DNA of 64,000 nt, taken from the NCBI GenBank assembly GCA_963719515.1, contig CAVRCJ010000001.1:192001-256000 (forward strand), given 5' to 3'. How positions within the stretch are numbered: position 1 is the stretch's first letter; every line of letters starts with the position of its first letter. Source of the DNA: an uncultured cyanobacterium. Lineage in GTDB: Bacteria > Cyanobacteriota > Cyanobacteriia > CAKZMO01. This document shows positions 28,349 to 64,000 of the stretch, one piece after another. The notes beneath the pieces are model-generated. The model saw nothing but the letters and a program-made list of their open reading frames with translations, was not told the DNA's origin and did not search any database. The position numbers were made by a program, and so were the translations under genes.

Positions 28349-28419
<71 letters not shown>

Positions 28420-58205: not shown

Positions 58206-58905
58206 TTATGCGGGCTTAAGTACTTCGTCGCGATAGCGCTGCACGACTTCAACAGCCTGCTTAACGCCATCCTCGGCCCGAACTGCCGCCCCGATCGCCT
58301 TGGCTTGCTGTTGCATTTTGGCATCCGAAACCGCCACTGCGATCGCTGTTGCCAATCGGTCTGCGGTGAGCTGAGACTTGGGAACGGGCGCCGGACTGGT
58401 GCCCAGTCGATGCACCCGGTCGCCCCAAAACGGCTGGTCTCCAAAGAATGGAACGACGACCGACGGAACGCCCGCTTTGAGGGCTGCGGCGGTGGTTCCC
58501 GCACCGCCGTGGTGGACGATCGCCGCCATTTGGGGGAATAGCCAATCGTGGGGGGCGGAATCGAGCAAAAACACCTGGTCGGGCAAATCCGTCTGAGAGA
58601 TCCCACCCCAGCCTGTGAGTAAAACGCCCCGCTGCCCTGTCAGCTTGAGCGCTTCTAAAACCACCTGGGTGAACTGGGCTGGGTTCTCGCCGCTCATGCT
58701 GCCAAAGCCGACGTAGACCGGCGGGGATGGCCTGGACATCGCCAGCGATCGCGGTAAACTCCAGGCCATAGCGCTGCACCATCGCCTGAAAGGTATCGTG
58801 GGTCGCGAGTTTGACCTGGTGTCCAGCCTGCTGCAGGCCCAGGCCTAGGGCGATAAAAGGCTGAACATCTCCCCGCGATCCAGTGGTCAAGATGGTGATC
58901 TTCAT
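58206..58905 (-). pseudogene. GT1 (sterol glucosyltransferase-like) glycosyltransferase with internal deletion
   Basis: MKITILTTGSRGDVQPF joined out of frame at ~58727 to PPVYVGFGSM...HHGGAGTT...PFFGDQPFW. Confidence 0.85.
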
Positions 58906-59569
58906 AGGGCAAGCTGTCATCACGCTGAAACCTTAAAGCGGGTAGCGCTGCCCACTAACCCACCGCACGTCCTCTATAAGCGTTATTACTGCTCTCGCAT
59001 TCGCCGAAGTGCAATAGTAATCGTCCTGATGGTATGTGAGGATACTCTTCTATGGAAAGAGCAAGCAGCAGTTATGCCCATGGTACAACCAGATCATTTG
59101 GAGGCCATACTGTGGTGCAACTCATCAAGCGGGTGATTTCGGTTGGAGCAGCGGCAGTAATTGGCGCGTTGGGTATGGCCTGCTCGGGCGAGCGCAAGCT
59201 GGAGGCCTGCCGATTTATTGAAATTGAACCCGCCGAAAGGAATTCGATCCGCGAAACTATAACGGAGCGGGCAATTCGCGAGGGCTGGGAACTGGAGGCG
59301 CTTTGCGAGATTCGCTGATTGATTTTAAGGGAAGCTGGCTTTTGAATCAGCTAGGGGTAGATATCAAAAGCGCGTATGACGAAGCTGATCCCAAGTAGGG
59401 CGCTGCGACACTCGCCCGAAATGGGCTATCTATTAAATCGATGAGGCTTCGGGCAGGCGTAATCCGAAAATTCGGCGACCTCACGCACTGTAGACGATGA
59501 ATTTCGGCTAAGAAGGGAAACACCTGGAATTTTGATGATTGGCGGTATCAGGGTGCAGACTGCAGCTGC

Positions 59570-60899: not shown

Positions 60900-61706
60900 T
60901 CGCCCGCGGATGGATCGCTGGCTAATGAAGGACACCCGCTCAAGCGGCGTTAAGATACTCCGGATAGGCGTTTCAAGAACCGGATGACGGCAGCGGGCAA
61001 CCTCCATCACTCGATTTCCAGCCTTGCTCAAGGGGGAACCGGTAGCGGCATTAGACGGGAGGCTCCGCTGTGCCCACGGCGGCGGCACTGTGGGCGTGAT
61101 TCCGGCGTTTCTCGACCATTGGACCAGCTGGAATCAGGACGCTGAGTTTTCGGTGATTGCGGTTTGCCCTCTCGCTGCTGAGCCGGGCTACTCGGGCGCA
61201 GGGTGAAGTGGAGCTGGTTCCTCAGGTTTCGGTTGAGGATTTGGTCGTTGAGCAGCTGGCCTGGCGCTCGGGCGAAAATCCAGACGGGCTGTCTGTCTGG
61301 TCGGCTGTATGGCGAGCCGTTAGGGATAGCGATCGCGGCTCGTTTGGCGGGGAATTACGGGGGTCGTGGCCGAAGGTTAAGGCCAGTGGGTTATCGCGAT
61401 CGCAGCTGGCGCGGGTCGTTGATTATATGCAGGCGAATTTGGCGCGGGATTTATCGGTTTTCGATTTGGCGGCTTTGACAGGGATGAGTGAGTCTCCTTT
61501 GCTCGCTCTTTCAAGCGATTGGCGGGGGTGTCGCCCTATCGATATTTGTTGCGGCTGCGGGAGGACGGGCGAAGGTGCTGTTGGCGGGGCGATCGGTTTC
61601 GATTAGCGCTGTTGCTCTGGATTGTGGGTTTGCGAATCAGACGCGTTTGACAAAGGTTTTTCGGCGGGTGATGGGGGTGACGCCTGGAGTTTATCGAAGG
61701 CGGTGA
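60900..61706 (+). pseudogene. AraC-family transcriptional regulator (frameshifted)
   Basis: GLSRSQLARVVDYMQANLARDLS, ISAVALDCGFANQTRLTKVFRRVMGVTPGVYR. Confidence 0.8.
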
Positions 61707-61736: not shown

Positions 61737-61821
61737 AGGTAACAGTCACGCTCACCGGGCGCAGACAACCTTTGCGGCACGACCGAAGTTTTGGGTCGTT
61801 CCGGTGACGCGGTTGTTAGAC
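61737..61821 (-). other. attC-like integron recombination site
   Basis: Minus strand GTCTAAC-AACCGCGTCACCGG...CCGGTGAGCGTGACT-GTTACCT; 85 bp. Confidence 0.7.
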
Positions 61822-61849: not shown

Positions 61850-62880
61850 TAATCAACGATTCATGGTTTTCCCAGTTTTACCTCTAGTTTCTGTGCGAGC
61901 TCTGCTGCATCTGTAGCTTTTAGCTTTCCAATATCGAAATATTGCTTACTGCCGAACATCCTCCTGAACTTGCTTGACAAGATTAGTGGGATGCATATCA
62001 TCCAATATAAATACCCTTACTGGATACCAAGATTCTCCAATTTCTTGGCGACATTTTATCGCAATCTGAATCATATCTTTTTCTAATCGGCTGACATTCG
62101 CTCCACAACAGACTCGCTTCATCTTCGTCTTCAGATTCCGAATCTACGACTGCTCGATTCGCGATACTTGTTCGACACATTTGTTGCGATATGCCCCAAA
62201 GTACAACTACGACGATGATTATAGGCTCCAGTTTGTGCTGGACAAGTGTATATCTTTGTGTTCAGTACATATCAAACTTCCCTGTGCAGTTTACGACATC
62301 CAAGCGATACCTCCAAGACGGCAGCAAGCTATTTTCATCAAATATTGCGCCCAAATCTGAACTGCATCAATCAGATTTTTCGGCAGATAAGGCAACTGAA
62401 TTGCTTGAAGAAATTGTTCAAAACTAACAAATGTAAAAGCAATACCCCTTCTTTAGCCTTGATTTCAACGTCCCGTAAAACCGGGTAGTTTGCTCGATGT
62501 TGCTGCTCAAAGTTGCCTAAAGCTATAAGTATTCTCTCTCCTTGCCTTGCTTCCGATATCTGTCGATGGGCTGGAAGACGTTCTTCCCCGAATCGCTGCC
62601 AAGCTTTGTCTCGATCAAAGTGAGAACGATCTTGAAAATTTCACCATCTGGCACGCTGTCTTTCCCACGGCGCTGTTGAATGAACTTTACACCTACCGTT
62701 CCTGAAAAGCTTTCACCGATAGTAATCCTCGTGCTCCGAGAGAAATTTCGGATTCTCTTGGTTCAGCATCTTAGAATTAAAAGACAGTGATTTGTTGTTT
62801 GATTTTCTCTCTGCCAGTAAGTTCGGAACAGACGTATGCTTCGACCCCGTCGTTTGTCGTTGTTAAGTTGACTAGAATGT
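61850..62880 (-). CDS. Cassette gene: putative PD-(D/E)XK nuclease-fold protein (frameshifted)
   Basis: Fragments RENQTTN, ENPKFLSE, VGVKFIQQRRGKDSVPDGEI, IETK, TGAYNHRRS, YFGAYRNKCVE; low GC. Confidence 0.5.
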
Positions 62881-62941
62881 CGATTCTACTTTCAAGCTCC
62901 TAGCTGATTTCTTAAATTGTACGCAGTCGTTGATTTAAGAG

Positions 62942-63024
62942 GGCTAACGTTCGGGTCACGGTTATCAGGATCTTTACGTCTTATCAAGCGGGTATGGTAA
63001 TCTACTGCACCCGAATTGTTATGC
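62942..63024 (-). other. attC-like integron recombination site
   Basis: Minus strand GCATAAC-AATTCGGGTGCAG...GTGACCCGAAC-GTTAGCC; 83 bp. Confidence 0.75.
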
Positions 63025-63040
63025 GGCGTCGTTGACAAAG

Positions 63041-63158
63041 TGCGGGGTAGGGGAATCGAACCCCTCAGCGTTGCTCTTGGATGAGGCACTCTTCCGAACC
63101 TACACCGCTCCCAGTACATCTGGGTAGTCATCACGACCTCCGCAGCACCGCTCCCCGC
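63041..63158 (-). ncRNA. tRNA-like structured element
   Basis: GCGGGG/CCCCGC acceptor-like stem plus perfect T-arm AGGGG-TTCGATT-CCCCT. Confidence 0.5.
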
Positions 63159-63191
63159 ATGAACCGACCGACGTATAGACAACAGGTGCAA

Positions 63192-63780
63192 TCATAAGCC
63201 CCTCCTTAATGTTGGTGAACAACGGAACCATTCGTGCACTGTTGAGCAGCCCTTAAGTACTCCAGAAGTACCCGTATCACCAAGATTTTGGGAAGGCTTG
63301 AGTACCAACCACCCCCATGATGTTGTAATTCTAGCTTTCCAACTGGACTCGACACAACTGTTGTAGATGTATTTAAATGCTTTATTTCTTCTTGCAATTC
63401 TCTCAAACCACCTCTCAGCGGTCAGTGCTCCCGCCCCACTGATGCGGTGCTGTCGACAAGGGTTCCCACATCCCGTTGTCCGGGTTTGCGTACCATTCGT
63501 TGAGAATGAGAATTGCTCCGAACGATAAACCCAACCCAACTCCAGCAGCAAGTCTCGAGCAAAGGAAAGCGACCCACTGTGGGATCTCGTTTTTGTCCTC
63601 AGAGACCTTCTCCAGAAATACTGCTGCTCTCGAGAAAGTTGCCCAAATTCCCCCGAAAATAGTTAAATGTTCACTCTGAGTAAGGATACCTCCAGACGGA
63701 AAGCGAAGCGTGATGATGATGAAGGGAATGAAGATGATGAGCCCCTCGACAGCATACAGAATTTCTTTGGGTTGTCTCAT
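63192..63780 (-). CDS. Cassette gene: hypothetical membrane protein (frameshifted)
   Basis: Three hydrophobic segments in 63415-63780 continuing in overlapping frames to ~63200; low GC. Confidence 0.5.
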
Positions 63781-63937: not shown

Positions 63938-64000
63938 GCATAACTATATATTCAACGTCAGATCTGACGGATAACACCCTGCTTCCCAGATCTTATCAGG
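63938..64000 (-). other. Candidate integron attI site
   Basis: Minus strand GAATATATA-GTTATGC with no attC palindrome; core is the exact complement of GCATAAC in the next attC. Confidence 0.55.

Follow-up and report, generated by a model that had tools for sequence, protein, structure and literature searches.

The window analyzed here, a stretch of 64,000 nucleotides (nt) from an uncultured cyanobacterium (positions 192,001 to 256,000 of contig CAVRCJ010000001.1, assembly GCA_963719515.1), carries near its end, on the minus strand, a tRNA-like sequence of 118 nt. An earlier note on this DNA had taken it for a free-standing RNA inside an integron cassette; judged from its alignment with homologous copies, it is instead the 3' domain of a larger conserved RNA of ~280 nt (~63321-63041), equipped with a promoter-like -10 hexamer, a leader and a small open reading frame (ORF). 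It is highly probable, in our view, that we are dealing with a genuine structured RNA which is conserved and includes a tRNA-like domain. As for its role, the reading favored here, at a probability of about 40%, is that of an mRNA of the type I toxin kind, self-promoted and translationally locked, which encodes a small peptide; its tRNA-like end would serve RNase P and the CCA-adding enzyme as a processing handle. The coordinates of the features in the window are collected in Table 1.

The search for homologues and for covariation proposed in the earlier note yielded 18 distinct full-length copies, all of them cyanobacterial or metagenomic, present once per genome, patchily distributed across families and sharing 72-90% identity. 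These 18 sequences constitute alignment A3, from which partial copies (G112, G508 and a weak match in G357) were omitted. Two of the latter are decayed: G508 (L175:1270-1597) keeps only the last ~90 nt of the tRNA-like domain, and G112 (L024:1506-1822) has the Shine-Dalgarno (SD) sequence, the ORF and the tRNA-like domain behind an unrelated leader. Among 61 related genomes two long matches were found, reaching ~160 nt upstream of the 118-nt stretch, and in a class-wide sample 17 of 401 genomes matched at E <= 0.001, with 11 of the matches (that of the window's own genome included) spanning most of the element, 4 restricted to the attC part and 2 short and partial. When a further 401 genomes were sampled around a different carrier, 8 matched, and 5 of these matches had not been obtained before. 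At least two named carriers, Sphaerospermopsis aphanizomenoides BCCUSP55 and Anabaena sp. UHCC 0451, were recovered by a pattern scan of genome contigs, and three distinct variants, on 9 contigs, by a metagenome scan. The element was found in none of 16 other genomes of the window's own family and was not matched in the plasmid and phage collections; in viral contigs there were five chance pattern matches, none of which was confirmed by the profile. The host genome (5.28 Mb, 21 contigs, 57% GC) holds a single copy. Its best identity to copies from other families is 87% and it sits within a low-GC block, both of which fit horizontal spread, and the dispersal of the element among cyanobacterial families looks horizontal on these sequence grounds. 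Similarity between copies starts ~35-40 nt before the -10-like hexamer and ends 2-3 bases past the discriminator A, and it is on the position of the hexamer and these limits around the discriminator that the extent of the ~280-nt RNA unit is based.

The fold model, derived from RNAalifold and inspection, begins with hairpin P1 at the RNA 5' end, followed by a leader strand which pairs with the interior of the tRNA-like domain through 28 pairs in six segments (91-100% of cells paired, seven pairs changed on both sides). In four copies the leader pairing CUUGG:CCAAG is replaced by CUUCG:CGAAG, and the first pair of CUGCUC:GAGCAG (columns 118/276) is C-G in eight copies, U-A in four and unpaired in six. 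Small hairpins are placed around the SD and across codons 1-12, and the 3' domain consists of a 7-bp acceptor, one unpaired A, a 7-bp helix P2 (GCGUUGC/GCAACGC), hairpin H1 (GGUC-UGGU-GACU) and the T-arm, with the 3' strand of P2 stopping 1-5 nt short of the T stem. The pairs of the acceptor and of P2 are crossed by the leader-interior helices, which makes the topology that of a pseudoknot; moreover, the 3' strand passes without a break from the segment paired with the leader to P2, so that the long helix and P2 could stack into one long irregular helix under the tRNA-like "top half".

In alignment A3 the model (68 pairs, 1222 cells) leaves 94.2% of cells paired, against 49-58% when partners were slid by 1-3 columns and a mean of 90.2% in 500 shuffles, while the number of pairs changed on both sides was 21, compared with 3-9 in the slid controls and 9.1 ± 1.9 in the 500 shuffles, none of which reached the observed value. 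Kinship among the sequences inflates such pair statistics; the slid controls keep this relatedness and are therefore the fairer comparison, and their values were clearly lower than those of the model. The pseudoknotted fold is thus strongly supported at the level of comparative sequence evidence. Changes on both sides were distributed over P2 (3 of 7 pairs), the inner stem of H1 (1 of 4) and the T stem (1 of 5; A-U in 4 copies and G-C in 14, with 100% of cells paired), and the acceptor stem, with 97.6% of cells paired, showed one-sided changes of the G-U type, no pair of the seven changed on both sides, and pair 6 broken in two copies. G-U cells outnumbered A-C cells (128 vs. 19) and reading the opposite strand would drop pairing to 85%, an excess which indicates that the constraint acts on the transcript of the minus strand and not on duplex DNA.

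Several structural details of the earlier note were superseded by this model. The CCAAG that had been drawn as the "anticodon loop" of a shrunken tRNA-Gly pairs with the leader CUUGG, including the G-C to C-G swap in the four copies mentioned above. The outer part of the first hairpin proposed there had 84% of cells paired and no covariation, and the second hairpin (AGCG..CGCT, formed via the second AGCG) had 76% of cells paired and conflicts with P2. Likewise, GGGAGCGGTG does occur twice in the window, and this duplicated 10-mer is specific to the window copy (1 of 18 copies) and no feature of the element.

The core of the note's proposal, that the stretch mimics the acceptor and T-arm of a tRNA and is not itself a tRNA, stood: stems and discriminator are present and conserved in the homologues, and ARAGORN (default settings) and Rfam were negative. 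On the minus strand of the window (63158-63041), a 6-bp acceptor-like stem is formed by GCGGGG facing CCCCGC; the acceptor stem of the homologues has 7 bp (GCGGGGU/ACCCCGC), and the shorter form of the window corresponds to a 1-nt deletion in which U7 was lost. The T-arm of the homologues reads GGGGG-UUCGAUU-CCCCC, with the T-loop UUCGAUU in 16 of the 18 copies, and both U at position -1 and A73 are found in all 18 copies of A3, with CCA not encoded. Folded alone, the 118-mer had a free energy z of -1.77 and 8 of 200 shuffles folded equally well, so that the fold by itself is not significant, and it is the conservation in homologues that places it above chance.

In the window, ARAGORN at default settings and Rfam 15 at the gathering threshold returned only a tRNA-Gly(UCC) at 28349-28419 and made no call at the tRNA-like stretch, and no match was obtained at five homologue loci. 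A permissive Rfam search of 62700-63500 (E up to 10) gave a sole match, of the 17-nt T-arm to cyano_tmRNA (13.2 bits vs. a gathering score of 70). When the ARAGORN thresholds were lowered to 60-80%, an "intron-containing tRNA-Gly(acc)" was proposed for the stretch, and the search for transfer-messenger RNA (tmRNA; option -m) gave nothing there. An ordinary tRNA, an intron-containing tRNA and a tmRNA were all rejected, in view of the negative ARAGORN (default and tmRNA) and Rfam results, and an att scar of a resident tRNA was discarded likewise, as the 3' end of the element is found nowhere else in the host genome. The closest host tRNA is tRNA-Gly(UCC), equal at 25 of 32 compared acceptor and T-arm positions, and since the likeness is confined to these two parts, a derivation from this tRNA is only suggestive. 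Elsewhere in GC-rich DNA of the host genome ARAGORN called a 102-nt "tRNA-Gly(gcc)" (C3:733936-734037) and a 94-nt "tRNA-Pro(ggg)" (C7:100578-100671), whose poor acceptor stems suggest false positives.

The small ORF traverses the 5' half of the tRNA-like domain, in such a way that its codons 13-19 are at the same time the acceptor and P2 strands. In the other copies the SD is kept, with variants, 5-6 bases ahead of an invariant ATG, and the ORF, 22-57 residues long, is open for at least 19 codons in all 18. The conserved first 22 residues (M-I-A-P-V-[VI]-Y-[TV]-[TI]-[VA]-G-S-C-G-V-A-L-L-R-R-S-G) form a hydrophobic stretch followed by RR. Within codons 11-20, which include the acceptor and P2 strands, variable sites were distributed 3/0/6 over the three codon positions, and the three compensated changes in P2 are all synonymous on the coding strand. 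In the window copy, a -1 indel (acceptor U7) and a +1 indel (H1 loop) lie 22 nt apart, so that both the frame and the customary C-terminus are regained. Among 1.84 billion representative proteins scanned, 8 clusters were found, each with the peptide core, and all of them are for this reason taken to be the same element. On balance, the odds that the ORF is translated are put at roughly two in three.

Partition-function folding of the full RNA and of a truncated "nascent" form gave the SD a mean unpaired probability of 0.26, compared with 0.38 over all positions. In local folds its predicted partner is a UCUCC-type pyrimidine stretch 19-25 nt upstream, and for the ATG a pairing with the CAU immediately before G1 is predicted, both predictions concerning invariant bases and hence lacking covariation support. 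At the 5' side, a TAnRRT hexamer is found 9-29 nt ahead of hairpin P1 in 17 of the 18 homologues, from which we infer that it is the promoter -10 of the element.

Table 1. Features of the element and its surroundings in the window
Feature	Position	Strand	Remarks
-10-like hexamer TAGAAT	63328..63333	-	predicted transcription start ~63321
Hairpin P1, RNA 5' end	63290..63315	-	8 pairs, 6 changed on both sides
Leader strand of long-range helices	63235..63284	-	pairs with 63118-63076 inside the tRNA-like domain
Shine-Dalgarno-like AAGGAGG	63201..63207	-	5 nt before ATG; conserved in alignment
Small ORF	63100..63195	-	31 codons + stop: MIAPVVYTSVGSCGERCCGGRDDYPDVLGAV
tRNA-like domain	63041..63158	-	made up of the parts in the next rows, as far as the discriminator A
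Acceptor 5' strand	63158-63153 (GCGGGG)	-	
A8	63152	-	single unpaired A between acceptor and P2
P2 5' strand	63151-63145	-	
Hairpin H1	63141-63123	-	
tRNA-like-domain strand pairing with leader	63118-63076	-	
P2 3' strand	63074-63068	-	
T-arm AGGGG-TTCGATT-CCCCT	63065-63049	-	perfect 5-bp T stem and canonical 7-nt T-loop
Acceptor 3' strand	63048-63042 (CCCCGC at 63047-63042)	-	
Discriminator A	63041	-	
attC (R'' GCATAAC, L'' TTCGGGT, L' ACCCGAA, R' GTTAGCC)	62942..63024	-	66.9 bits, E = 1e-14, model R1
Second, weaker attC-like site	61737..61821	-	33.7 bits, E = 4e-5, model R1; closes next cassette-like unit and low-GC block

The location of the stretch between an ORF stop and an attC, as described in the earlier note, was borne out, the attC being genuine under model R1, a covariance model built from 10 cyanobacterial attCs (an 87-nt family found via short BLAST matches). 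Its motif, GCATAAC-AA-TTCGGGT...ACCCGAA-C-GTTAGCC, starts 17-19 bases past the discriminator, and in homologues the L'' and L' boxes covary (TCCTGGT/ACCAGGA, CCCCGT/ACGGGG). The claim of an integron cassette held in part: the downstream attC is real, and no copy has an attC upstream, the only other site of the window within reach being the weaker one, also downstream. An attC follows the element in 6 of the 18 copies. The element is therefore not confined to integrons, and its cassette status is right for the downstream side of the window copy. According to Cury et al. 2016 (PMC4889954), cyanobacteria encode integrons and promoters are rare in cassettes. In the five genomes checked for a tRNA-like end joined to an attC as a general cassette feature, the combination was present only at this element.

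Model R1 detected seven sites in the host genome besides the 66.9-bit one, the second site of the window included. The others (C11:442941-443027, C11:444559-444646, C1:273701-273785, C1:276194-276280, C4:91761-91846 and C14:57179-57265) are scattered remnants resembling clusters of attC sites lacking integrase (CALIN), with two pairs 1.6-2.5 kb apart. The search for an integron integrase in this genome gave as its best TIGR02249 match a 28-bit fragment on another contig. Elsewhere, the model found at least 127 sites in G397, 9 in G268, 12 in G081 and 4 in G038, and no attC in the Nostocales carrier G336. IntI exceeded the NCBIfam cut-off in G397 (465 bits, one TGA counted), with attCs adjoining, and was represented by fragments of ~100 bits in G268 and G081. 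The element of G397 lies on one contig inside an array of six co-oriented attCs; the integron of this genome is very large, with attCs over many small contigs (e.g. C276:674-6767, C32:120-3587).

In the favored reading, the RNA would be both structured and coding, mobile and self-expressed. The leader (P1 and the 50-nt strand) is paired with the interior of the 3' domain via 28 bp, as the sequence comparison supports, and translation would be locked, with the SD and AUG held in local hairpins and the long-range helices clamping the whole, as in type I toxin mRNAs. The traits by which such mRNAs are recognized, namely a small hydrophobic peptide, a structured mRNA and a sequestered ribosome-binding site, are all predicted for the element. 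Its tRNA-like end would recruit tRNA enzymes. What bacterial RNase P and the CCA-adding enzyme require of a substrate is a stack of 12 bp (acceptor plus T stem), a T-loop, a U in position -1 and a purine as discriminator. The element has these features in its sequence (7+5 bp stack, T-loop, U-1, A73), which keeps RNase P/Z processing, one of the roles considered in the earlier note, a live possibility. A cut by RNase P between U-1 and G1 would fall inside codon 13 and inactivate the message, leaving a stop-less 12-codon fragment and a stable ~120-nt tRNA-like piece, possibly still paired with the leader; the 3' end would be set and protected by RNase Z and the CCA-adding enzyme. In that case the unit would act as a cassette for addiction or defence, driven by a promoter of its own, which fits its position before an attC in one third of the copies (6/18). 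Most cassettes known to be self-promoted are toxin-antitoxin modules.

A number of observations weigh against this reading. No antisense or antitoxin partner was found, and a simple promoter scan together with inspection of the alignment recognized no conserved antisense promoter; the transcription of the element itself is predicted. The peptide matched no family in Pfam or NCBIfam and gave no usable match in the atlas search. Over all 22 conserved codons the third-position excess is absent (variable sites 9/10/12), and the peptide tail and the position of the stop vary, three copies ending after 22-24 codons and several running on. In one copy the frame shifts after codon 19 without compensation, three have an early stop caused by insertions and a fourth one caused by a 1-nt deletion. 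The invariance of GSCGVALLRR could be explained by the RNA helices alone. Furthermore, the elaborate tRNA-like domain, with its conserved H1 loop, exceeds what a cleavage signal would need, and cleavage by RNase P would split the ORF, making the timing of peptide production hard to explain. As to the cassette, 12 of the 18 copies lack an attC, and an upstream attC was detected in none of 19 loci (model R1, filters off, within the flanks examined).

Part of this evidence bears on a different reading, somewhat improbable and still the nearest of the rivals, in which the RNA itself would be the product, either in full length or as a 118-nt piece that RNase P releases, and the SD, AUG and ORF would be regulatory or incidental. 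Through its "top half" such a noncoding mimic would bind or titrate the CCA-adding enzyme, a synthetase, EF-Tu, or toxins that modify tRNA ends or cleave tRNA. Conservation is indeed strongest in the T-loop, acceptor, P2 and helices and not in the peptide tail, pairing is predicted for the SD and AUG, the tRNA-like part is retained both in G112, with its replaced leader, and in the 3' remnant G508, and several copies occur among defence or toxin-antitoxin genes (a PIN_3 pair, AAA_21 with DUF4435, Uma2). The strong, well-spaced SD, the invariant ATG, the synonymous-type variation in codons 11-20 and the frame-restoring indels point to translation instead, and no protein neighbor recurs. Anticodon nucleases in particular, for which the earlier note had suggested a decoy, are unlikely targets, as no free anticodon arm is conserved. 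The DNA-level alternatives, a 3'-half relic of a tRNA-Gly left by site-specific integration or a tRNA-end-like site of cassette recombination, fare far worse and are the least probable of all: they draw on the 25 of 32 acceptor and T-arm positions equal to those of tRNA-Gly(UCC), a likeness which fades beyond these parts, and they are opposed by a 5' acceptor strand that lies 118 nt away, conserved and pairing, by the covariation of P2 and the long-range helices, by the strand-specific signal (G-U 128 vs. A-C 19) and by a 3' end not common to any host tRNA.

Hardly more probable is a tmRNA-like device, in which the leader and tRNA-like pieces left by RNase P would remain joined by the 28 bp and an aminoacylated end would engage ribosomes that have stalled on the SD-AUG mini-message, by then deprived of its stop. 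There is a slim chance that the element represents in this way a split, self-contained relative of tmRNA, its charged end tethered to the mini-message and acting in cis on the translating ribosome; its role, on an equally slender expectation, might be e.g. the capture or tagging of the 12-residue peptide, or ribosome arrest as a defence switch. An acceptor and T-arm with the anticodon arm absent, an irregular long helix that consists of P2 plus the long-range helices, has a continuous 3' strand and leads to the message-like part, and a cut at G1 that leaves 12 codons without a stop would all accord with such a device. It is opposed by the pair G3-C70 (212-353) of all 18 copies, which means that the alanine identity pair (G3-U70) is lacking, and by A73, since the host's own tRNA-Gly genes have U73. 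Moreover, tmRNA has neither an SD nor an AUG, the Rfam tmRNA models and the ARAGORN tmRNA search were negative here, and the host genome has a normal tmRNA, with a tag presumably of the cyanobacterial type.

No recurrent protein partner emerged from a Pfam analysis of 74 flanking ORFs at the 18 loci. The earlier note had also envisaged an RNA partner of the upstream membrane protein; the 121-aa ORF concerned (63415-63780) has no counterpart beside any other copy, and the upstream flanks differ in every homologue. Genes of the toxin-antitoxin or defence type were common nearby, none consistently (a PIN_3 pair in G042, AAA_21 and DUF4435 in Sphaerospermopsis, Uma2 at three loci), and the Uma2, PIN_3 and AAA_21-type genes, at 2-3 loci each, were treated as island background. 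In S. aphanizomenoides BCCUSP55 (L041:4448-6772), an AAA_21 ATPase gene and, next to it, a DUF4435 gene begin ~300 nt downstream of the element, a pair which we take to resemble the PARIS defence system, and AAA_21-type genes were also observed beside the copies of G208 and G508. In four Nostocales-type copies (L023, L041, L077 and L160) the element stands in the same place, directly downstream of gnd (6-phosphogluconate dehydrogenase) and without an attC, and in two of these four sequences it is followed by Uma2-family genes.

Other repeats and gene remnants were noticed around the window copy. Past the window end (L009:2316-2525, i.e. window coordinates 64316-64525) there are about ten tandem 21-nt units of the AGAACTCC-GAGCAGC type, flanked by GCGATCGCCC repeats, which look like iterons or an array of binding sites. 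Upstream of the 121-aa ORF, from 63955-64000 of the window on to 64153 (L009:1955-2153), about six copies of the motif AGGGTGTTATCCGTCA occur in both orientations and may be an operator or recombination array. Beside the low-GC block, broken genes were found at 58206-58923 (-) and 61157-61706 (+): a family-28/UDPGT glycosyltransferase split over two frames, and an AraC-type helix-turn-helix protein left as a 72-aa C-terminal piece.

Rfam 15 has no family for the window element or for the five homologue loci, full-text searches of the literature gave no description of it, and a search for terms in PMC12873609 gave nothing on it. The RNA family is apparently undescribed so far. To our knowledge, bacterial RNAs with a genuine tRNA-like domain are few, namely tmRNA and YrlA; the element adds to them a covariation-supported tRNA-like family of a different architecture, whose acceptor stem and P2 double as coding sequence for a mini-protein. 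Integron cassettes are usually promoterless protein genes, and the element indicates that a cassette can also harbor a structured RNA of some complexity, equipped with a promoter-like sequence; it further offers a concrete case in which tRNA-processing enzymes may gate a message. Should it prove to be a module of the toxin or defence type, it would represent a stabilizer of a new kind for cyanobacterial integron arrays, and if the split-tmRNA reading were true, a new class of ribosome-directed RNA in integron cassettes.

Among known systems, tmRNA (SsrA) shares with the element an acceptor and T-arm without an anticodon arm, and a P2 that leaves the junction before the T stem and leads through a long irregular helix to a message-like segment. 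Unlike tmRNA, the element has G3-C70 where tmRNA has G3-U70, a single nucleotide between acceptor and P2, leaving no D-loop analogue there, an ORF with its own SD and AUG that begins upstream of the acceptor strand and crosses it, and a long helix that uses the 5' leader, resulting in pseudoknot topology. YrlA and the bacterial Y RNAs likewise include a tRNA-like module within a noncoding RNA; in YrlA, the RNA ends make a Ro-binding stem and not an acceptor stem. The kinship with YrlA entertained in the earlier note was not sustained, as the element has no Rfam match and the host genome no TROVE/Ro gene (PF05731, detected in control genomes).

We know of no toxin mRNA that ends in a tRNA-like domain, and literature searches gave none. 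Type I toxin mRNAs such as hok and aapA1 of Helicobacter pylori, the latter an mRNA with long-distance folding (PMC5416894), resemble the element in a hydrophobic peptide of ~30 aa, distant 5'/3' pairing, a sequestered ribosome-binding site, an own promoter (predicted in the element) and a location in mobile or accessory DNA. They differ from it in having an antisense RNA partner, none having been found for the element, whose peptide is a putative toxin. The mascRNA of MALAT1 is a tRNA-like processing element. In plant mitochondria, the t-elements are described as tRNA-like processing elements in longer transcripts (PMC1920247). Both place a tRNA-like fold at an mRNA end, where it could recruit RNase P/Z to set the termini; unlike the element, they are organellar or eukaryotic, have no overlap with a coding sequence and are not known from integron cassettes. 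Promoter-active gene-less cassettes are known from integrons (PMC11014356 and PMC6557892). Self-promoted cassettes, e.g. the toxin-antitoxin ones of sedentary chromosomal integrons, compare with the element in the local-family attC downstream of 6 of the 18 copies and the -10-like hexamer inside the unit. The element departs from them in having no upstream attC in any copy and no attC at all in 12 of 18, with the Nostocales copies placed after gnd, and in its cargo, a structured RNA that includes a mini-ORF, in place of two paired protein genes.

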